Positions 18,303-38,212 of a stretch of DNA of 64,000 bases are shown one piece after another (position 1 is the stretch's first letter; each line of letters starts with the position of its first letter). A program made the position numbers and the translations under genes. The stretch is from Candidatus Latescibacterota bacterium. Lineage in GTDB: Bacteria > Latescibacterota > UBA2968. The stretch spans positions 640,001 to 704,000 of the forward strand of contig OZ241986.1 in NCBI GenBank assembly GCA_965204375.1. Reading direction: 5' to 3'. The notes under the pieces are model-generated. The model ran no database searches and had not been told where the DNA came from. It saw only the letters and a list, made by a program, of their open reading frames with translations.

Positions 18303-18393
18303 ACACATTTACGCTCTGGGGATTATGTATCACAGTAGCATAAATCCCATGAGACAAGGCCGTGCAGAGAAGAGCGCGGCCTTTAGACAAAAA

Positions 18394-18519
18394 TTATTTT
18401 TTGGGTGGTGGCTTTGGTGGTGGCTTTGGTGGTGGTTTTGATGGCGGTTTTGATGGACGTGCAGGGCGCCCTCCTCTTTGTTCGTAATTGGACTTACCTC
18501 TATTACTCTGCTGTGGCAT
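18394..18519 (-). CDS. 41-aa Pro/Lys-rich peptide (not in the ORF track)
   Basis: MPQQSNRGKSNYEQRGGRPARPSKPPSKPPPKPPPKPPPKK; AAGGAG RBS; overlaps the stop of the upstream gene. Confidence 0.55.
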   Translation of the reverse strand: MPQQSNRGKSNYEQRGGRPARPSKPPSKPPPKPPPKPPPKK

Positions 18520-19054
18520 ATCTACTCCTTAGATATTCGGCGGCTTCGTCAAGGCACTTTTCGTTAAGTTTGTGATTTTCAGATATGTCTGAGAATCCTA
18601 TTGTGCTTGTTACAATAACCATAGTGTGAGACAACTCCCTGTCTTTGGCAATTATTTCTGCGTCTTCCATATCCATTGACCTCATATCGGCCCAGAGTTT
18701 TTCCCATTCACTTTCTAACAAACCGCAGTGGACGCTTATTGCATGCAAGATCGCAGACTTTCTTCCCCAATCAAGCACAAAATCTACAGCAAGGGTAGCA
18801 GCAAGAACGAGGCCAAAACCAAGTTGCCACCCGTAATCCAATGCGTTAATAAATGATACTACTCCAGCGGTTGCAGAAACAAATAGAAGAAACCGAACCC
18901 CAGTATGCCATTTGCGGTAGTTATCGGAAAGATAAGCATAATACCGAACCAACCTACAGGCATCAAACAAGTGTTCCCATACCTCCTGTTCTATATGTTC
19001 ACGGTTAGAGGGCGGCAATGGTGGTGAACCTGCTACAATCCCAGGAGTATCCAT
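18503..19054 (-). CDS. SLATT-like two-TM effector protein
   Basis: Helix (RYY..LSDNY), two TM helices, helical tail (H..I...W..LW); GGAGG RBS. Confidence 0.6.
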   Translation of the reverse strand: MDTPGIVAGSPPLPPSNREHIEQEVWEHLFDACRLVRYYAYLSDNYRKWHTGVRFLLFVSATAGVVSFINALDYGWQLGFGLVLAATLAVDFVLDWGRKSAILHAISVHCGLLESEWEKLWADMRSMDMEDAEIIAKDRELSHTMVIVTSTIGFSDISENHKLNEKCLDEAAEYLRSRYATAE

Positions 19055-19770: not shown

Positions 19771-19887
19771 CAGTTTTGCGTCGGGGATTATGTATTATAG
19801 TGCCGAGAACATAATCCACATAATCCCACAATAAAAAAGCTGGCTACTCACTGATAAAGAAGCGGCCAGCTTTTCCTCTAAAATGAT

Positions 19888-20364
19888 TTAGGTACTGCCT
19901 TTTATTCTACGTTGCATCATTCTTCTTTTTCTGTAATATTCCGGGTTATATTTGCTTCCATCAGCCTTTTGTGGTGTTTGTGTCTTGGGCCTCACAGGAC
20001 CTTTAGACCCAAACCATTCTGACAGCTTATCTTTCGCCAGATTCGCTGTTTCAGCCGTCATATATGCTCTGGCAAGACCCAAAGCTGTTGCTAAAACTCC
20101 CGCATCATCTCCATACCCAACCAGAGGTGTCATATCAGGGACCGCATCTATTGGGATAATAAAGTATGCTAAGGCACTATAAATCGCGGTTTTTACCGTG
20201 ATCGGTGTTCCTTCTTGCTTTGCGGTATAGTAAAGCTCTAGCGATTTTTTAACAACTGCCCTACCCGCGGTAGTAGCTTGATTAGACAGTTTATCCCAAA
20301 ATCCACGCTCCGTGTACTTCTCTGGCTCTGGTAACGAGGGACTCTTACGATTTCCGCTTTGCAT
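19888..20364 (-). CDS. YkvA/DUF1232 membrane protein with an extra basic C-terminal tail
   Basis: FWDKL...AG......L.LYY...ALAYFIIPIDAVPD.TPLVGYGDD; GGAGG RBS at ATG 20364. Confidence 0.85.
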   Translation of the reverse strand: MQSGNRKSPSLPEPEKYTERGFWDKLSNQATTAGRAVVKKSLELYYTAKQEGTPITVKTAIYSALAYFIIPIDAVPDMTPLVGYGDDAGVLATALGLARAYMTAETANLAKDKLSEWFGSKGPVRPKTQTPQKADGSKYNPEYYRKRRMMQRRIKGST

Positions 20365-20398
20365 CTCTACCTCCGGTGTGAGTGTTAGCCCATAATCC

Positions 20399-20561
20399 GG
20401 CACCCCGGTTTGGGTGCCGGGCGGTATCAACACTCGCGCAGTAGAGATGCGGGAAGTCCTACTTATTTACCAAGGCTTGGGGAGCTACCCCTCGCCTATG
20501 TGATTGGTTATTGTATTCGGCAGGCCACCCGACATACGGGCACCGCACGAGCGTTGATACC
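20399..20561 (-). ncRNA. Candidate structured RNA, copy 1 (family unidentified)
   Basis: 19-bp closing stem, inner hairpins and 3' hairpin covarying with copy 2; TTGACT-17-TATCAT promoter at 20593-20565. Confidence 0.65.
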
Positions 20562-20747
20562 TGTATGATACAATAGCCTTTTCTGTAAGTCAAAACATAA
20601 ATCCCTATCTAATCTGATTGACGGGTTTTGTGTTGTACAACACGAGGGGCACATGTTGCCTGCCATAGTTTGACATTTGATTCTGGAAATCCTATTTTGT
20701 TACTTTGAAATAGGCAAGGCATGCGCTGATTCTAAAAGAAGATAAAG

Positions 20748-21236
20748 ATGGCTAAGGGCGACCATATTTGTGTAAGTAGAGGACTCTACTGGCATCATGG
20801 AATTGATCTCGGAAATGGCCGAGTCATACACTATACGGGGTACCCTGGGGATAAGGGCAGAAATGCCGCTATTAAAGTTGAAAGTATCCAAAAATTTGCC
20901 AAAGGAAGGGAAATTTACTACGGAGACTCTAAAGCGCAATATTCGCATGATGAAATTGTGAGGCGTGCCGAAGGTCGGATTGGTGAAGAGGACTACGATA
21001 TCGTCGGCAACAATTGCGAACATTTTGTGAACTGGTGCAGAACTGGCCGACATAAGAGCCAGCAAGTCAATACGGCGGCGGCTTTGGTTACACCTGCTGC
21101 ACCTTACGCGTACCTTAAACAGAAATTCGGTGCTCCGACACCTCCGGCACCACAAAAGGCTGACGGCAGTAAATATAATGCGGAATATTACAGAAGAAAA
21201 AGAATGATGCAACGCAGAATAAAGGGTAGCACCTAA
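20748..21236 (+). CDS. LRAT-family (permuted NlpC/P60) acyltransferase/phospholipase with a basic C-terminal tail
   Basis: GDHI, HHGIDLG, VIHY, NNCEHFVNWC catalytic motifs. Confidence 0.9.
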   Translation: MAKGDHICVSRGLYWHHGIDLGNGRVIHYTGYPGDKGRNAAIKVESIQKFAKGREIYYGDSKAQYSHDEIVRRAEGRIGEEDYDIVGNNCEHFVNWCRTGRHKSQQVNTAAALVTPAAPYAYLKQKFGAPTPPAPQKADGSKYNAEYYRRKRMMQRRIKGST

Positions 21237-21642
21237 ATCATTTAATCGGTCGATTTTTTTTATGAATGAGTGTCTAAATGGAGGCAGAAATACATTTTTC
21301 AGGGCCTGTTTTTGGGCGTATTTGCACAAAAAAACGCCAATTTGCGGGCCTGGGTACACTGAAAAAGGGCAATTTAGGGGCTTTTTACAATATTCGAGGC
21401 GAGCAAGGCGTAGTCTGTTTTTGTGTTGGAAGGCGCTGAACAGCCATAAATGGGTCAGGTAAAGGAAAAAAACAGCGTTTCTGTGGTGACATGGTAGCAA
21501 AAGGGCGTGTTTTTGCTCAAAATGCCCCGCATGCGGTTCCGCCCTCAGTGTGTCATCCTGCCCAAGTAAGCGGACATGTTGGGTGCAAAAGCCCGTCGAT
21601 CGTTCTGATTAACGGGCTTTTGTGTTGTACTCGAGGCGGGTT

Positions 21643-22335
21643 TTACCGCCCTTTTTCCCATATTGCGTTATAGGCGGGGCTGGTGTTCGTGAACTCTGTT
21701 GTCAGGCTTATCCTGCCTTTTCCGAGGGTCTCCACAACGATTAACAGCTTTACCTCGGTCACATTATCCGGGAAAGGTTTTCCCCCCAATCCTCTCATGT
21801 CTTTCCATTCGGATATGAACGCCTGACCGTCGTAATTCAAAAACCGCCTTGTCCAATCCTCTGGCGAGTCCCAAGCGTTGGTATTAAATGACCGCTGCAT
21901 CCGGTAGCCGCCTGAGCTGTACCGCTCGGCCAGTTGCTTTTTGATTGCCTGGTATTTAGGCATGATATTCTCGCCACCATTCCCCACGTCCATTTCATCC
22001 GACCAGGCCCACAGCTTAAAAAGCCCGTGATCGGGCGTGAAATATAGCCGAAAGAGGGTAAAGTCAGCCTCTTTCGGCTCCTCAGAAAAGAGGCCGGAAA
22101 ACAGATCGAGGGCTGATTTTTCCGGGGGTGTATCAGCCAGTTTAAGTATAATGGAGCGTCGATAGCCCACCGAGTCAATGTCTGTTATCTCGAAGCCTTT
22201 GAGGGCCTTAACTTCATCAAAAGGCATCCCCATATAGAACTCAAAGGAATAGACGCCGGGCGGTTTTGTCTGGGCGGTCGCTGATGCGACAAGTAGCACC
22301 AGTGAGGTCAATAGTGTGCGGGTTAAAGTCAACAT
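21643..22335 (-). CDS. Secreted hypothetical protein
   Basis: Signal peptide MLTLTRTLLTSLVLLVASATA-Q; AAGGAG RBS. Confidence 0.65.
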   Translation of the reverse strand: MLTLTRTLLTSLVLLVASATAQTKPPGVYSFEFYMGMPFDEVKALKGFEITDIDSVGYRRSIILKLADTPPEKSALDLFSGLFSEEPKEADFTLFRLYFTPDHGLFKLWAWSDEMDVGNGGENIMPKYQAIKKQLAERYSSGGYRMQRSFNTNAWDSPEDWTRRFLNYDGQAFISEWKDMRGLGGKPFPDNVTEVKLLIVVETLGKGRISLTTEFTNTSPAYNAIWEKGR

Positions 22336-22488
22336 GTGTTGCTCCTTTGTGTTGGGTGGTGAGTACACACAAAAAGCACCTGGAAACACGCGCTCCAGGT
22401 GCTTTCTATTTTTCCCAAATAGTCTTGAAAAACTTCTACAGTTTTCGCGTGGACTTTTCGCATGGTGGACTTTCTGCGAGGTGGTTGT

Positions 22489-22651
22489 GGCACTCAAAAT
22501 TGAGTGCCGGGCACAGTCCACCGTCACGCAGAAAGATGCGATTAAGCCCTGCCTGTTTACCCTAGATCGGGGAGCTACCCGTCACCGTTAATGGGCTATT
22601 GTATTCAGCAGGCTACCCGACAAAACGGGTATCTGCCTGACAATGGACTGT
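22489..22651 (-). ncRNA. Candidate structured RNA, copy 2
   Basis: Same length and architecture as 20399-20561; TTGACA-17-TATTCT promoter at 22684-22656. Confidence 0.65.
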
Positions 22652-22692
22652 TGCCAGAATACAACCACAGGCAGGGGGTGTCAATATAAATA

Positions 22693-23022
22693 TCACGTAT
22701 CGAACCAACCGACCATTTGCTCAGCGGCTTGCTTTTTCGCCTTTGGTGTGATGTGCATTGCAATAGCGGCGACTGTGCTGATCAGTACGCCGAGGTCGTC
22801 TGTGAACCCGAACACTGGCGTTGGGTCAGGTATGGCATCAATGGGCGATATGAAATAGGCCAGTGCCGCGAAAACTGTGGCCTTCGCCCACTTGGGCGTA
22901 TCCTTTGATTCGGCAGTGTAATACAGCCATAGAGCTTTTTCAATCACATCGCGGCCAGCTTTGCGAGCGAATGTTTTGATCTTCTGCCAGAAATCGGCCT
23001 CGCTAAAATCCTTGTCGGCCAT
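22693..23022 (-). CDS. YkvA/DUF1232 membrane protein (no tail)
   Basis: FWQKI...AG......LWLYY...ALAYFISPIDAIPD.TPVFGFTDD. Confidence 0.85.
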   Translation of the reverse strand: MADKDFSEADFWQKIKTFARKAGRDVIEKALWLYYTAESKDTPKWAKATVFAALAYFISPIDAIPDPTPVFGFTDDLGVLISTVAAIAMHITPKAKKQAAEQMVGWFDT

Positions 23023-23153
23023 ATACGGTCTCCATCGAAAAATCCCACAGCTTAAAGTTCTGTGGGGTAGTTGAACGGACCTTGCTCTTGTCCGCAAGGG
23101 GGGAATGAGGCGATTCAGCAATGCGGTGCTTAAATCGCTTCTGTGGGCGTCTG

Positions 23154-24547: not shown

Positions 24548-25309
24548 TCAATCCTTGTCGAATGCGCGGCTTATCAAATCAGATGCCTCTTTTTTGGTCA
24601 CGCGCACCTCGCCGTCTTTTGGTGGAGTCTTCAGCTTGCGGTTAATCTCGTCGGCAAGGTCGGGGTCAGTCTTGTTGCTCTTTGCGATGTTCTGCAAAGC
24701 CACAATCTGTTTCGATGTAGCCGCTTCACCTGGGCCTACCTCAAAGCGAGCGTCCGATTGATGCCGAGGCGGAGGGGTTGGATCGTTGAGCCAATCATGG
24801 CCGGGGTCTTCAATCCCGTTGTCTGGCGGATCGTCGTAGCGGCCATTGTGATGCCCGTTGTTGCTGGCCTGGCGGTTGGCCTGGTCATTATCTCCATCGT
24901 AGAGGTGTAGGCCAATGCCGAAGGTCGAACAACACTTTTTGAGCGCATCGACGGCGGCCACTTTCATTGCATCGCCTAATGGGAATCCGCGGTTGATTGT
25001 GCCGTGCCCGAAGTTTTCCCTGGTAATTGTTCGGCCATCCTCAAGGGTGATCGAGAGCGAGCCTTTGACGGCGACATGAGAATCAGTAAGTCCTGCCACT
25101 TCAGTCCGAAAGTTCCAGGCGAAGGGAAAGAGCGCATCGAGGCGGCGCGTGTACTCGGGGTGTCCCACATACGAGAGCGGCTTGTTGCCTGTTCCTGCGT
25201 CCTGGCGAACCTTTATCACGTTACTGGGGAACGGCACATAACACTCGCCAACGATCTGCTCAACGTCCACTTCTGGCAGTAAAGCGGTTTCTGCGGTGAT
25301 TGCTTCCAT
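24548..25309 (-). CDS. Rad52/Rad22-family single-strand annealing protein
   Basis: LSYV.....RRLD..F...W.F, V...L.I...RE.FG, K.A..DALKKC..FGIGLHLY. Confidence 0.9.
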   Translation of the reverse strand: MEAITAETALLPEVDVEQIVGECYVPFPSNVIKVRQDAGTGNKPLSYVGHPEYTRRLDALFPFAWNFRTEVAGLTDSHVAVKGSLSITLEDGRTITRENFGHGTINRGFPLGDAMKVAAVDALKKCCSTFGIGLHLYDGDNDQANRQASNNGHHNGRYDDPPDNGIEDPGHDWLNDPTPPPRHQSDARFEVGPGEAATSKQIVALQNIAKSNKTDPDLADEINRKLKTPPKDGEVRVTKKEASDLISRAFDKD

Positions 25310-26461: not shown

Positions 26462-27160
26462 TTAGAATACGTTGGCCTCTTTCATCGAGAGAAACCGCTC
26501 GGATCCAATGATCAGATGATCGACCACTTCGATGCCGAGGATTTCGCCAGCCTGAACCATCCGGCGCGTAAGCTCGATGTCCTCACGAGAGGGCGTTACG
26601 TCTCCAGAAGGATGGTTATGCCCAAGTATCACCGAGGCGGCACTTGTCCCGACTGCGGGGGCAAACACTTCTCTCGGATGCACAAGAGAGGCATTGAGGG
26701 ATCCGATGCTGATTGTCTCAGTCTTCAAAATCTGATTGCGGGCATTCAGATAGACACAGACGAAATGTTCACGCTTCAAATTCTTTATATGGCGAAGCTC
26801 AGGGAGTACATCGAGCGGGCTTGTTATGGACGGCTCTGTACCCATGCCCTGGTTAAGAACACGTCTCGAAAACTCTATCGAGGCTTGCAGGGTCAACAGT
26901 TGGGATTTCGTGAGGTCGTTCCCTTTGAGTTGTTGGTTGACAATCTGCCCGGGCGGATGTTCAATTTGAAAATTTGCCAAAGTCTCAAGCGGGTTCTGTT
27001 TGAGGAATGACTTGGTTTTTGTCAACGCTCCGGTCTTTCCTCTTTGCGGCATTCGCAGAACCAGGGCGAGCAGTTCTTCTGCGGCCAAAGATTCTGGGCC
27101 GTTTCTTTGGAGTTTATAGATGGGCTGATCCGCTTCCTGGATGCGGTTGAGTTTATACAT
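26462..27160 (-). CDS. radC: RadC/JAB-domain protein
   Basis: HPREVF, HNHPSGD..PS..D, VDHLII motifs. Confidence 0.95.
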   Translation of the reverse strand: MYKLNRIQEADQPIYKLQRNGPESLAAEELLALVLRMPQRGKTGALTKTKSFLKQNPLETLANFQIEHPPGQIVNQQLKGNDLTKSQLLTLQASIEFSRRVLNQGMGTEPSITSPLDVLPELRHIKNLKREHFVCVYLNARNQILKTETISIGSLNASLVHPREVFAPAVGTSAASVILGHNHPSGDVTPSREDIELTRRMVQAGEILGIEVVDHLIIGSERFLSMKEANVF

Positions 27161-27887: not shown

Positions 27888-28286
27888 ATGGACATTGTAA
27901 TTGATACGTCAGCGATTATTGCGGTGATTGTAGGTGAACCTGAAAAAGACGCGATTATCGCAGCTACATCGGGTCACACACTTATCGGTCCCCGCTCCAT
28001 TCCCTGGGAAATTGGAAATGCTTTCTCGTTGATGTTCAAGAAAGGCAGCCTCGATGTTGAGGATGCACAGCGGGGTCTGAAGATTTTCGATAGTATCCCA
28101 TTGCAATACGTGAACGTTGACATGGCAAATGTTCTGTCTATCGCGGCCCAGGTGAACGCATACGCATACGACGCGTACTTATTGGACTGCGCTTTGCGGC
28201 ATACAGCGCCCTTATTAACGCTGGATCGAACACTTAGACGGGCCGCAGACGAACTCAATATCAACCTCGTTAATTTGGAGGAGTAA
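27888..28286 (+). CDS. vapC: VapC-like PIN toxin
   Basis: IVIDTSA, E in WEIGNA, AYDA, LLTLD; promoter TTGACA..TACAAT overlapping the palindrome TACAATTGTA. Confidence 0.9.
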   Translation: MDIVIDTSAIIAVIVGEPEKDAIIAATSGHTLIGPRSIPWEIGNAFSLMFKKGSLDVEDAQRGLKIFDSIPLQYVNVDMANVLSIAAQVNAYAYDAYLLDCALRHTAPLLTLDRTLRRAADELNINLVNLEE

Positions 28287-29736: not shown

Positions 29737-29917
29737 CCCTATCGGTTTATACGGCTGAAAATGCGACCAGACGCATATGCGCCTGATTAAGATAACACAG
29801 TGCTACTACGAGCAGAATGTAAAATCGGGGGAGTCTTTTAGGAAGTATCAGACTCCCCGATTTTGTTTGTTTTTATGGTCACTACCCTACATAATTCCCT
29901 TACAAAAGGAGCTTTCT

Positions 29918-30757
29918 GTGCGTCTGTTATTGGTAATCACTTACATATTATTGGTCATAGGTTTTCTGTGTGCTTTTTATTTCTTTAGGCAAATTCTCGA
30001 AACCTCGGATAAAATTGCTATCATTGTACCACCTGCTATTGCTGCAATATACGCACATTTGCAGTGTCTCTATTACAGAAACGAAGAAAGGCGCCAAAAA
30101 AAGGAAGAGGCACTTGATAATTTTGAGAAAAGATTTAAGGATCTTATTGAGTCGAAGAACAGCGTGGGGGTTGAGAGCGAAACGGACAACGTACCATGGT
30201 TTCGTTTTCCCGGCGTTAGCATTGGTGAATTTATGATAAACCCGTTCACAATTTCCAGGAAAAATGTACATAAATTGAAAAGTGGTGTGATAGCCTTTCA
30301 GGATGAATCACTATCTATCTCCCTAAACACGCTTAACAATGCTCCTCCAGAAGTCCGCTATGACTGGATAGACGCACAGGGCAAACCAAATCTGGACGAT
30401 TCGTACAGTGATAGGTTTCAGGTTTGGGATACATACTTCGGGTACTATTTTTCAGGCTTGTGCGCCTTGATTCGGTCTGTTGAGAAAGAAATAGAATTCA
30501 ATGAAAGTGACAGAATGTTTTGCATAACAAGAATAAGGCACTCCCTGTCCGGGGGTGAAGTTTTTTGCTTATTCTATTACTGCATGAACGATAATCTGTT
30601 GTGTAAAGAATTGAAGGGGCATGTGGAAAAGTACGGACTCTTTGAGAACCTCTCATTTTTCTGTCTCGAAGACGAAAAAATGCATAGAGGCAGATTCTAC
30701 GATCCGCGTGCATTTGGTGACAGAGAAACGGTCATTCGCGGTCACTACTCTACATAA
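29918..30757 (+). CDS. Second putAbiC-like abortive-infection protein
   Basis: Two TM segments, YFGYYF..L..LI..V, IR..LS..E...LFYYC, VEKYGLFENL; ends FY...AFGDR like 2878-3708. Confidence 0.65.
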   Translation: MRLLLVITYILLVIGFLCAFYFFRQILETSDKIAIIVPPAIAAIYAHLQCLYYRNEERRQKKEEALDNFEKRFKDLIESKNSVGVESETDNVPWFRFPGVSIGEFMINPFTISRKNVHKLKSGVIAFQDESLSISLNTLNNAPPEVRYDWIDAQGKPNLDDSYSDRFQVWDTYFGYYFSGLCALIRSVEKEIEFNESDRMFCITRIRHSLSGGEVFCLFYYCMNDNLLCKELKGHVEKYGLFENLSFFCLEDEKMHRGRFYDPRAFGDRETVIRGHYST

Positions 30758-33282: not shown

Positions 33283-34923
33283 GTGATTAAATGCGTTCTG
33301 TATGTACGAGTTTCCACCGACCTGCAAGCCGAGATTAAGAACAGTAGTCTCGATACCCAAATTGATCTGCTTCAGAAGTACATCGAAATTAAGGATTCCA
33401 CGTCGCCAAAGGAAGAATGGAAAGTGGTGGCGACCTATCGTGAAGAAGGAAAATCAGGCAAGAATTTAGAGCGTCCTGAATTCAAACGGATGGTTCGAGA
33501 CATTGAGCAGGGTAAAATCAATGCGGTATTATGCACAAAAATTGATCGTGTCAGCAGGTCTATCGTCGACTTTTATCAATTCCAAGAATTTCTAAAAGAG
33601 CATAAAGTAACATTCATATCTCTCCAGGATAATTGGGACACGTCAACTGCTATGGGGCGGTTTGCCCTCTCAATTTCTTTGGTAATGGCCCAGCTAGAAA
33701 GGGAACGCACCAGTGAACGTACAAAAGAAAAAATGCAGTGGCGTGCAGAGAAGGGTCTGTGTAATGGCGGACAGATTCTTGGGTATGATAATGATCCAGA
33801 CAACAAAGGTGTTCCAAAGCCCAATGAGGCAGAACGAGAACAGGTACTCTTAATTTTTCAGACGTATGTTAAAGAGCAGAGTTTTCGGGCTACGGCACGA
33901 ATCATAAATGAAAAAGGCTATCGTACGAAATCATACATATCGAGGAGAGGTAATATCCACGTTGGCAGAAAATTCAATAAAACACAGATCATGCGTATGT
34001 TGCAAAATGAATTTTATATTGGAAAAATTACTCACAAAGGGAAGACGTATGACGGCCAGCATGAACCCATTATTCCAATGGAATTATGGAATCGGGTGCA
34101 AGCTATCATAAAAACCAACCGAGTCACTGGTTCCAGAAGCAGAAAACAAAACCTGCATACCTTCTTGCTACAAGGTCTGGTAAAATGCGGATTATGTGAA
34201 TCTCACATGACGCCCACTTATGCTCAGAACCGCCAAAAAAAGCACTATTTCTATTATCATTGCACCTGTAAAATCCATCGTGGAAACGATGAATGCAAAA
34301 TGAAACCTGTGCCTGCACAAGCACTTGAACAGGTGGTCTCAGATCGGTTAATTCAACTCAGTGACGACCAGAAACGTGTCCAGGAGCTTATCGCAGAAGC
34401 TACGACAAGCAACTCAGAGCGTATAAAAACTTTGGGGCAGACACAGGAAAATTATCGCAGGAATCTCAAAGATATTGAAAAGAGGCTGGATGCTTTGGCG
34501 GAAAGCATTGCTGGACGCAAGATCGGCATAAAAACCATCAGTCAAAAAATCATCGGCCTGGAAGAACAAAAAAGCCAAATAGAGCAGGAGATGATGGAGA
34601 ATGAAACAACGCTTGCAGAGGCAAAACAAAAGGCCGTAAGTGTTGCTCAGTGGGAGCAAAAACTCACGACCTTTGAGGAATTATATAATGAAGCCACACC
34701 AGAGGAAAAAAAAGACCTCTTAAGGCTGCATATCAACCACCTGATCTATACCCCTGATGGGATTCAACTCGCCTTATTTGATCCCAGTGCCGAAGTGGAT
34801 AGGCCCAAAGTTCAGCGAGTCGTTGCATCTGGCTCCGGCGGTAGGACTCGAACCTACGACCCAGTGGTTAACAGCCACTTGCTCTGCCAGCTGAGCTACG
34901 CCGGAACGTCATATTTCCAATAG
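33283..34923 (+). CDS. Large serine recombinase (integrase)
   Basis: YVRVST catalytic Ser, SG....RP.F, DRVSR, recombinase domain (YIG), zinc ribbon (C..C...YY.C...C), coiled coil; AAGGAGG RBS. Confidence 0.95.
   Translation: MIKCVLYVRVSTDLQAEIKNSSLDTQIDLLQKYIEIKDSTSPKEEWKVVATYREEGKSGKNLERPEFKRMVRDIEQGKINAVLCTKIDRVSRSIVDFYQFQEFLKEHKVTFISLQDNWDTSTAMGRFALSISLVMAQLERERTSERTKEKMQWRAEKGLCNGGQILGYDNDPDNKGVPKPNEAEREQVLLIFQTYVKEQSFRATARIINEKGYRTKSYISRRGNIHVGRKFNKTQIMRMLQNEFYIGKITHKGKTYDGQHEPIIPMELWNRVQAIIKTNRVTGSRSRKQNLHTFLLQGLVKCGLCESHMTPTYAQNRQKKHYFYYHCTCKIHRGNDECKMKPVPAQALEQVVSDRLIQLSDDQKRVQELIAEATTSNSERIKTLGQTQENYRRNLKDIEKRLDALAESIAGRKIGIKTISQKIIGLEEQKSQIEQEMMENETTLAEAKQKAVSVAQWEQKLTTFEELYNEATPEEKKDLLRLHINHLIYTPDGIQLALFDPSAEVDRPKVQRVVASGSGGRTRTYDPVVNSHLLCQLSYAGTSYFQ
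34830..34905 (-). tRNA. tRNA-Asn(GTT), island insertion site
   Basis: TCCGGCGTAGCTCAG...GCTGTTAAC...GGTTCGAGTCC...GGAGCCA cloverleaf. Confidence 0.95.
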
Positions 34924-37175: not shown

Positions 37176-37265
<90 letters not shown>

Positions 37266-37325
37266 AAAATAAGCACACAGGTGTATGTGTGAGAAAGCCG
37301 ATAGCTGACCGCTTACAGCTATATT

Positions 37326-37415
<90 letters not shown>

Positions 37416-37434
37416 AAAATATCACGAGGTCGTT

Positions 37435-37806
37435 ATGCCGCATCCCATTCGCATTACAGTTGGCGATATTGAACTCGAGGCCGAGTTAAACGATTCGCAA
37501 ACAGCAGACAAAGTTCGCGAGGTTTTGCCGCTGGATTGTTCGTTTAATACATGGGGCGATGAGATTTACTTTGCAATTCCCGTTCAAGCGGGGCCCGAAG
37601 ATGCATGTGAAACTGTGGCGTTGAACGACCTCGGATATTGGCCGCCGGGTCATGCATTTTGCATTTTTTACGGTCAGACCCCAGCCAGTCATGGAGATGA
37701 AATTCGTCCCGCAAGTCCCGTCAATATTATTGGACGGGTGCTGGGCGATGCCACGGTGCTCAAATCTGTTTCGGGAGAGCGCAATATCGTGGTTGAAGCC
37801 GTTTAG
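37435..37806 (+). CDS. Cyclophilin-like fold protein (DUF369-type)
   Basis: WGDEIYF.IP, YWPPG.AFCIFYG.TP.S....RPASPVN. Confidence 0.85.
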   Translation: MPHPIRITVGDIELEAELNDSQTADKVREVLPLDCSFNTWGDEIYFAIPVQAGPEDACETVALNDLGYWPPGHAFCIFYGQTPASHGDEIRPASPVNIIGRVLGDATVLKSVSGERNIVVEAV

Positions 37807-37807
37807 G

Positions 37808-37884
<77 letters not shown>

Positions 37885-37939: not shown

Positions 37940-38212
37940 GGTCGTGCTAGACGGGGAGATAGCGGTGCCCTGTAGCCCGCAATCCGCTATAGCGGGGTCG
38001 AATTCCACGTCTGAGAACCGGTATTTTGGATCGCGGTCGATGAGTAGGCAGCGTTGATCGTCAGGTCCTGCGCAACGTACCTATGCCGAACCCCGTCAGG
38101 ACCGGAAGGTAGCAGCGGTAAGCAAATCGGTGCGTGTGCCGCAGGGGCACCTGGCAGGAGCCAGCGCTCGTTGAACGCCCCGGGGTAGCGGTTCGAAGCG
38201 CGGTGCACGACC
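37940..38212 (+). ncRNA. ffs: Long (Alu-domain) SRP RNA
   Basis: GTGCTAGACGGGGAG..AGCGGTGCCCTGT 5' Alu region; GTCAGGACCGGAAGGTAGCAGC helix 8; closing GGTCGTGC/GCACGACC; upstream of dnaX. Confidence 0.9.

Follow-up and report, generated by a model that had tools for sequence, protein, structure and literature searches.

Why would a short stretch of bacterial DNA hold two RNAs of one shape whose closing stems share no sequence? The question arises in Candidatus Latescibacterota bacterium (assembly GCA_965204375.1, contig OZ241986.1, positions 640,001 to 704,000 of the forward strand), in a 64,000-nucleotide (nt) stretch that was analysed as a whole and is called the window below. Both copies lie on its minus strand, copy A at 20561-20399 and copy B at 22651-22489, where an earlier reading made from the letters of the window (the sequence-only reading) had placed them. 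Here we report that they belong to a large family of structured RNAs with a promoter directly in front, two covarying closing helices and, in many copies, a segment complementary to the ribosome-binding site of the next gene. We propose, at a probability of roughly 0.55, that each copy is a promoter-proximal leader of about 165 nt that is co-transcribed with its target, carries an antisense segment against it, masks this segment with its own 5' strand and represents a long variant of the scaffold of sRNA-Xcc1, a small RNA (sRNA) family already in Rfam. We read the element in this way from its sequence, because an upstream copy of the target, the antisense word and the downstream target itself lie on one predicted transcript.

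Two copies in the window and the family behind them

The closing stem, P1, spans 139 nt in both copies, as had been claimed, and its sequences are unrelated. Copy A joins GGUAUCAACGCUCGUGCGG (20561-20543) to CUGCGCGAGUGUUGAUACC (20441-20423) by 19 pairs out of 19, G-U pairs included; copy B joins ACAGUCCAUUGUCAGGCAG (22651-22633) to CUGCGUGACGGUGGACUGU (22531-22513) by 18 out of 19, the exception being a G-G mismatch. The interior is kept when the two copies are aligned (mean column identity 77%), and the alignment contains the segments that had been listed as conserved, namely CCCG-loop-GUCGGGU, GCCUGC.GAAUACAAUA, GGGUAGCUCCCC, GGUAAA, CGCAUCU and GCCCGGCAC. The GGCAC...GUGCC hairpins fall at 20418-20399 (A) and 22508-22489 (B), again in agreement with the earlier description. 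Minimum free energies (MFEs) are -82.5 kcal/mol for copy A (z = -6.74) and -73.6 kcal/mol for copy B (z = -5.57), and 0 of 200 dinucleotide shuffles were as stable in either case. Both the folds and the alignment confirm that the G-U pairs are compatible with one strand only, and the interpretation of the two copies as structured RNA is supported. A protein-coding reading was rejected: the overlapping open reading frames (ORFs) are just 44-52 amino acids long, and the alignment contains indels of 1-2 nt together with compensatory changes in the stems.

A promoter scan found the sigma70 promoters that the sequence-only reading had seen in front of both copies, each with 10 of 12 consensus positions. 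That of copy A consists of a -35 hexamer TTGACT (20593-20588), a 17-nt spacer and a -10 hexamer TATCAT (20570-20565) and so occupies 20565-20593 on the minus strand; that of copy B, TTGACA-17-TATTCT, lies at 22656-22684 on the same strand. This arrangement is a property of the family described below, where a promoter with at least 8 of 12 consensus positions is present in 58 of 87 non-redundant loci and the -10 element ends 4-6 nt before the RNA's first paired strand in 56 of those 58. Promoters with at least 9 of 12 positions occur in 39 of the 87 loci; when four control windows were scanned, 1 of 87 loci scored as high in any of them.

A third copy in the genome, found by BLAST, has yet another closing-stem sequence. 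From 34 homologues we built a covariance model, R1, which contains the helices P1, P2, P3 and T and whose E-values are rough. It scores copy A at 160.8 bits over 20396-20565 and copy B at 150.9 bits over 22486-22655, and it finds eight copies scattered through this 6.34-Mb genome. The covariance-model search that the sequence-only reading had suggested thus returned homologues in many genomes. Among 61 genomes (the source and 60 relatives) a BLAST match was found in 37, and in 151 genomes sampled evenly across the phylum R1 matched 63, with 1-14 copies each. The positive genomes are concentrated in 11 of 46 genera, among them those labelled g1 (18 of 19 genomes), g7 (15 of 15) and g20 (18 of 22). 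A strict core pattern recovered at least 120 stretches in a one-genome-per-species collection, many of them in complete chromosomes, in records labelled Latescibacterota, Binatia, Alpha- and Gammaproteobacteria, Gemmatimonadota, Acidobacteriota and Nitrospirales (at least six phyla, among the matches listed), and R1 confirmed 99 matches in the 100 sources searched. The homologues are related to one another, and counts of loci here and below overstate their independence.

The family is large, spans several lineages and is not a local duplication; horizontal spread is the best explanation, and it forms part of the reading to which we give a probability of about 0.55. BLAST of copy A against 72,556 plasmid and 50,697 phage records gave no match, and the core pattern occurs in 1 of 2.9 million viral contigs. 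Rfam 15 assigns no family at its gathering threshold to either copy, and an Rfam search of 20 proteobacterial loci returned no match to the RNA at E <= 0.01. We likewise found no description of this long form in the literature on sRNA-Xcc1, on orphan riboswitches and on sponge or Latescibacter RNAs. A large and well-supported structured RNA family, with hundreds of copies mostly in uncultured bacteria, has been missed by Rfam 15.

Two details of its distribution are of separate interest. In this genome two family copies stand in tandem, 475 nt apart (G000:C1:1318037-1318688; L169, 600-1760), each preceding a small non-secreted ORF (33 and about 70 amino acids) with GCGG(G)AAUUUUUUUAUG before it; the pair resembles the tandem sRNA-Xcc1 arrays of Xylella, as far as the accessible account of those goes. 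Contigs of metagenome-assembled genomes labelled Gemmatimonadota (L105, L113) carry the RNA and downstream genes in a form near-identical to contigs labelled Latescibacterota (L031, L097, L114), which reflects either recent transfer or mislabelled bins.

Two closing helices and a partner at the ribosome-binding site

From 5' to 3', family members present the promoter, the 5' strand of P1 (P1a), a CCCG word, a loop of 2-5 nt, the 5' strand of a second helix K (K5), the P3 domain, a junction of about 20 nt, the 3' strand of P1 (P1b), the 3' strand of K (K3), the hairpin T, a segment called S2 and a start codon. P1a is 14-23 nt long and variable in sequence. K5 has the family form GUCGGGUNN and K3 the form NNRCCCGRC, abutting P1b. 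The P3 domain consists of P3a, a loop GAAUACAAYA opposite RAAUA, P3b, P3c and a GGGUAGCUCCC hairpin, and its internal loop is nearly invariant in the alignments. The 5' arm of T overlaps K3, sharing the three bases GGC.

In copy A (all on the minus strand, the RNA at 20399-20561 by the limits first given), P1a occupies 20541-20561 and would mask P1b by a helix of 19 bp (-30.0 kcal/mol). The P2 hairpin follows at 20528-20540 (CCCG 20540-20537, loop, CGGG 20531-20528) and rivals K for the CGGG word. K5 (GUCGGGUGG, 20525-20533) can form 9 bp with K3 (CCGCCCGGC, 20416-20424), which abuts P1b and overlaps the 5' arm of T. Between them lie the P3 domain at 20458-20524 (P3a CCUGC/GUAGG, loop CGAAUACAAUA/AAAUAA, P3b, P3c and P3d, GGGG-UAGCU-CCCC at 20491-20479) and, at 20425-20450, the junction GCAUCUCUAC with P1b (20444-20425). 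T (GGCACCC-AAACCG-GGGUGCC, 20399-20418) has no U-tract behind it, and no terminator was called there. S2 (CUAACACUCAC..., a partial copy of P1a) lies at 20361-20388 with the Shine-Dalgarno (SD) sequence GGAGG (20374-20370) and the start codon (20364-20362) of a gene of the DUF1232 (YkvA) family (19888-20364, minus strand; PF06803, E = 3.1e-12), the likely target. The reading of T as an intrinsic terminator was rejected, most copies having no U-tract behind it.

Copy B (22489-22651) is built in the same order on the minus strand, with P1a at 22651-22631, CCCG at 22629-22626, K5 at 22621-22614, the P3 domain at 22612-22548, P1b at 22533-22513, K3 at 22513-22506 and T at 22508-22489. Its S2, CCACCUCGCAGAA (22484-22472), is followed by a second P1a-like word, AGUCCACC (22471-22464), and by the ORF MRKVHAKTV (22463-22434), the three together filling 22434-22484. 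Further on, fold and sequence identify an intrinsic terminator at 22371-22402 (GCACCUGGA/UCCAGGUGC then UUUUU), ahead of the next gene, whose ATG is at 22335; the terminator scan missed it because its loop is 9 nt. The nine-codon ORF, in the form MRK[VA]HAK[TA]V, is kept after copy-B-type RNAs at four other loci (L019, L033, L039, L072), and a different tiny ORF, MF(MF)KNTF[AT], follows copy-C-type RNAs (L002, L016-L018, L051). Either could be a leader peptide or merely conserved RNA.

P1 was found with 14-23 bp in all 107 loci in which the anchors could be placed (7 of 114 loci, which have no recognisable K3, were excluded), in many unrelated sequences and at -19 to -36 kcal/mol. In the covariation alignment of 99 sequences (96 distinct rows), which is fitted to R1 and hence favours P1, P2, P3 and T, changes on both sides were observed at 16 of 16 modelled P1 pairs and at 7 of 7 pairs of T, and the four P3 helices covary at 14 of 16 pairs. 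Overall, 94.6% of cells pair, versus 74.5% in shuffles and 34-45% with slid partners. The covariation that the sequence-only reading had proposed from two copies is therefore strong across 96 distinct homologues. P2 cannot be tested in this manner, because its CCCG:CGGG helix never varies.

The second closure, K, forms 9 consecutive bp in 94 of the 107 loci and 8 bp in another 11. Its outer positions 7-9 covary; for pair 51-187 the counts are CG 35, AU 26, UG 14, GC 5, GU 5 and UA 4. K is absent from R1, and the alignment was therefore not fitted to it. The GCCC that had been described as a spacer before the terminal hairpin is no spacer, belonging instead to this helix. P1b and K3 are contiguous (a gap of 0-1 nt in most loci) and P1a and K5 lie about 8-12 nt apart, which by geometry would keep full-length P1 and K from coexisting, and the invariant CCCG can sequester the CGGG of K5 in P2. 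The long closing stem first described is thus real and covarying, and it would be one of two mutually exclusive closures. Another pairing was considered and set aside: from the first 34 homologues RNAalifold proposed a helix between GUCGGG and the junction word CCCGCA, which is absent outside Latescibacterota-type copies and pairs better with the start-codon region, whereas GUCGGG covaries with the distal CCCGRC.

P1b has a further partner. In many copies S2, downstream of T, is a partial copy of P1a, constant in place and lineage-specific in sequence. When the stretch from P1b to the start codon is folded, it forms one long hairpin, P1b-K3-T-S2, in which the pyrimidine-rich 5' end of P1b covers the SD; sequestration of the SD in the fold of the segment P1b...AUG+9 is seen in many lineages, copy A included. 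Copy A folds without constraint at -95.9 kcal/mol with P1 formed, and at -80.9 kcal/mol with P1a blocked; in the latter fold the partner of GCAUCUCUAC, which holds the CGCAUCU word, is GUAGAGAUGC, a stretch that takes in part of the SD and the AUG, and the partner of P1b is CUAACACUC, the antisense segment as a whole engaging 20388-20361. We compared the pairing of each leader with its own P1b and with the P1b of other loci. Among 47 non-redundant loci, 23% place their own P1b in the top 5% (Kolmogorov-Smirnov (KS) p = 0.0095, Wilcoxon p = 0.0046; p = 1e-4 against an upstream control region), and the duplex overlaps the SD window in 30 of the 47. The complementarity between P1b and S2 is real and is limited to a subset of loci.

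What the next gene encodes varies widely. Heuristic ORF calls place its start at a median distance of 50 nt beyond K3 (n = 102) and, in most loci, on the RNA's own strand. Judged by crude hydropathy, 65 of 102 N-termini are strongly hydrophobic; a lipobox is present in 18. Of 48 downstream proteins from other lineages, 31 belong to no Pfam family, and the families seen include CsgG-like proteins, outer-membrane-protein (OMP) beta-barrels, M10 peptidase, a secreted ankyrin-repeat protein, DUF7424 and TbpB-like proteins. Adjacency to a YkvA (DUF1232) gene, to which the sequence-only reading had drawn attention, holds for both copies in the window, a second such gene lying upstream of copy B (22693-23025, minus strand; PF06803, E = 9e-15) with its stop codon 8 nt before the -35 hexamer. 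It is no property of the family: a DUF1232 gene adjoins 3 of 34 relatives' loci and is found in 0 of the 48 downstream proteins. The YkvA neighbourhood of the window is therefore incidental, given this absence and the high diversity of genes on both flanks of family loci.

Kinship with sRNA-Xcc1 and a proposed mode of action

The best, sub-threshold match of either copy in Rfam 15, and the sole family that a relaxed scan brought up, is sRNA-Xcc1 (RF02221), at 27.7 bits (E = 0.051) for copy A and 17.1 bits for copy B, below the gathering cut-off of 53; the genome's five matches to this family reach 28.6 bits at best. The statement that the RNA fits no known family therefore stands as regards Rfam gathering scores and fails as regards structure, since stem K and an internal loop are shared. 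The 9-bp outer stem of sRNA-Xcc1, GUCGGG.../...CCCGRC, is K and aligns to model positions 1-9 and 71-79. The first helix inside it is broken by an internal loop, AAUACAAUA opposite GAAUA, which is seen in bona fide sRNA-Xcc1, and a hairpin comes straight after K3. Both forms occur in mobile DNA upstream of cargo genes, and in both the stretch from P3 to K3 includes a variable segment that reads antisense to the following gene's leader, a feature found here and not part of the Rfam definition. The long variant differs in length (163-175 versus 88 nt), in a 33-nt insertion in the first domain and an added P3c/P3d arm (GGGUAGCUCCC), and in a second, longer closure in which the antisense segment is paired to the 5' mask P1a, not shown in a small hairpin. 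Its downstream genes are mostly of the exported or envelope type and not antirepressors, and its hosts are mainly uncultured Latescibacterota, Binatia, Alpha- and Gammaproteobacteria, Acidobacteriota and others, among the matches listed. On these grounds the RNA fits best under the sRNA-Xcc1 kind, as a new and longer variant that escapes Rfam 15.

The short form offers an independent view of the variable segment. A core motif taken from the RF02221 consensus matched at least 103 viral contigs, and 14 of 20 loci tested scored above the RF02221 cut-off. In 55 non-redundant loci, among the matches listed, the variable segment reads antisense to the following gene's leader close to the SD (31% of loci rank in the top 5%; KS p = 9.5e-13). 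The target lies just before the SD and runs into it, as with CUCGUUGA facing UCAACGAG-G or UCUUUUGG facing CCAAAAGA-GG. The gene that follows is of antirepressor type in 10 of 13 cases (AntA, KilA-N, P22_AR_N, ORF6N, Bro-N, pRha). In phage loci from IMG/VR (L173-L252; for example L181, L180 and L246) the loop is perfectly complementary to 7-8 nt before the antirepressor SD and covaries across loci with this pre-SD sequence, which points to a c4-like immunity role.

The c4 RNA of phages P1 and P7 (a1b1/a'b'/a2b2) and the CI RNA of P4 (seqA/seqB/seqC) are antisense RNAs co-transcribed with their target, and both are processed by RNase P. Like them, the RNA described here would share its promoter with its target, and it combines a constant scaffold with specificity words that differ between elements. 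The antisense word has a complementary copy on either side, upstream (P1a, in 107 of 107 loci) and downstream (S2, in a significant subset that includes copies A and B). In contrast to c4 and CI (Rfam C4 and the c4-a1b1 motif), the scaffold is different and without sequence or Rfam similarity, and the upstream copy forms a continuous helix of 14-23 bp with the antisense word. The C4 model (RF01695) has no match in 20300-22800 at its gathering threshold or at E <= 10.

sRNA-Xcc1 has been in the literature since 2010, described, in the accessible portions of the reports, as a trans-acting or virulence-linked sRNA that gives a single Northern band of about 100 nt and has mapped ends 88 nt apart (PMC2996969). 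The same portions place it upstream of symE in Xanthomonas integron cassettes (bioRxiv 10.1101/2025.06.18.660453), upstream of an ORF6N gene in an APSE phage and in tandem copies in a Xylella island. An antisense relation to the adjacent gene was not found in these parts of the sRNA-Xcc1 literature, Chen et al. 2011 lying outside the coverage. The complementarity reported here would supply a concrete mechanism: antisense pairing of the variable segment with the ribosome-binding region of the adjacent gene, usually a phage antirepressor.

If the published description extends to the long variant, each copy would be a stand-alone sRNA that acts in trans on distant mRNAs, perhaps with a chaperone, and the neighbouring gene would be irrelevant. 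The discrete, mapped 88-nt species of sRNA-Xcc1 (PMC2996969, in its accessible part), the terminator at which copy B ends and the loci without a convincing S2 are all consistent with this. We nevertheless regard it as unlikely: copy A and most members lack a U-tract terminator behind T, the median distance to the next same-strand ORF is 50 nt, and the sole segment that is both variable and exposed matches the adjacent gene in the long and the short variant alike. A shared distant target is itself unlikely because P1b differs among the copies of one genome.

Our preferred reading, the self-masked antisense leader, may be pictured as follows. A constant core, made of stem K and of P3 with its AAUACAAYA/GAAUA loop, would carry a copy-specific antisense segment, P1b with the junction, that in many copies, including A, is complementary to S2, the SD and start-codon region of the next gene. 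P1a, a near copy of S2, would mask this segment by forming P1. In the presumed open state, P1, the CCCG:CGGG hairpin and T would form and leave the ribosome-binding site free; in the closed state, with K formed as in sRNA-Xcc1, or with P1a removed or occupied, P1b would pair with S2 and shut the site. K together with P1b:S2 would then have the connectivity of a classical H-type pseudoknot with a junction of 0-1 nt. Candidate triggers are processing at the 5' strand and the binding of a protein or ligand to the invariant P3 core. The family itself, its promoter, the helices P1, K, P3 and T and the complementarity between P1b and S2 are shown by the data above; the treatment of P1 and K as alternatives, the choice of active state, the direction of regulation and the trigger are our interpretation of the pairings. 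Two covariation-backed closures, apparently exclusive, and a third partner at the ribosome-binding site would make the family a natural model for RNA switching.

Several points weigh against this picture. The S2 signal is modest, about three quarters of the non-redundant loci lying outside the top 5%, and in some loci the nearest ORF is more than 100 nt away or miscalled. Copy B, given the intrinsic terminator ahead of the next protein gene, could be an independent RNA of some 280 nt that includes its own S2. The MFE structure of the full-length RNA always keeps P1, by 15 kcal/mol in copy A, so the closed state would require an extra input, and the exclusion between P1 and K comes from geometry, not computation. 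Finally, antisense pairing alone does not account for the very strong sequence conservation of the P3 core, which suggests a bound protein or ligand.

This last point leads to a reading in which the P3/junction core is the sensor of a riboswitch, binding a small molecule or ion that favours P1 or K, with S2 and the SD as expression platform. Its layout would be a classical one: a near-invariant core that needs an explanation beyond base-pairing sits among variable, covarying helices with two exclusive closures, and P1b can find a second partner in the SD region, as in translational riboswitches. The occurrence of 1-14 copies per genome before varied genes, many of them exported or envelope-related, is matched by second-messenger riboswitches, which show a similar spread. 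However, at 14-23 perfect pairs P1 is far longer than the usual switching helices, the downstream genes share no metabolic theme (the 31 of 48 without a Pfam family included), gene context suggests no ligand candidate, and the short relatives precede phage antirepressors, where antisense immunity RNAs are the norm and which they resemble in behaviour. We consider a ligand-sensing riboswitch doubtful.

The self-masked leader can also be extended into a bolder form, which we put forward as speculative and rather improbable. The near-invariant P3 core would sense a small molecule or a dedicated protein and thereby switch the RNA from one closure to the other. The family would be a new class of bistable riboregulator, passed horizontally among at least six phyla and gating translation of exported and envelope proteins, those of secreted ankyrin-repeat and lipoprotein genes included. 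sRNA-Xcc1 as a whole would become a cis-acting antisense controller and not a trans-acting virulence sRNA.

Putative mobile surroundings of the two copies

A large serine recombinase gene (Resolvase, Recombinase and Zn_ribbon_recom domains; 33283-34920, plus strand) overlaps a tRNA gene (34833-34905, minus strand) in the window. Together with the genes for RadC (26465-27160), a PIN protein (27888-28283), putAbiC (29777-30754) and a Rad52-like protein (24551-25309), it suggests an integrated mobile island that holds both copies. If the module has been moved before genes for exported proteins across phyla, as the family's distribution suggests, it is relevant to the way in which mobile regulatory elements travel through a microbial community.

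These surroundings raise the question of whether the element works as DNA, for example as an attC-like site, a miniature inverted-repeat transposable element (MITE) or another recombination site, or else as a self-cleaving ribozyme. It is multi-copy, it stands in mobile contexts such as the island just described, IS110 or IS1595 transposases or tRNAs lie near other loci, and sRNA-Xcc1 resides in integron cassettes according to the accessible part of bioRxiv 10.1101/2025.06.18.660453. We find such an explanation highly improbable. The inverted repeat differs between copies and therefore is not a conserved terminal repeat, the eight copies are scattered and not arrayed, and the only recombinase nearby is the large serine recombinase. 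The attC core is GTTRRRY, which the stems do not contain. The one-strand restriction of the G-U pairs and the promoter at a fixed distance speak for a transcribed element, and no Rfam ribozyme family matches. A retron was also considered and rejected, no reverse transcriptase being present among the flanking proteins scanned.

Some further features of the window were noted. An inverted repeat of 96 nt, 89% complementary, lies at 19881-19976 and 21148-21243; it encodes a shared C-terminal tail of about 28 residues (PQKADGSKYN.EYYR..RMMQRRIKGST) of two divergent and unrelated genes, the DUF1232 gene that ends at 19888 and an LRAT/NlpC-like gene (20748-21236, PF04970). Tandem 12-nt repeats, GGTGGTGGCTTT, at 18362-18520 give overlapping Gly/Phe-rich and Pro/Lys-rich frames on opposite strands. 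A bacterial large signal recognition particle (SRP) RNA with Alu domain was found at 37942-38210 (178.6 bits), adjoined by three tRNA genes (37176-37881).

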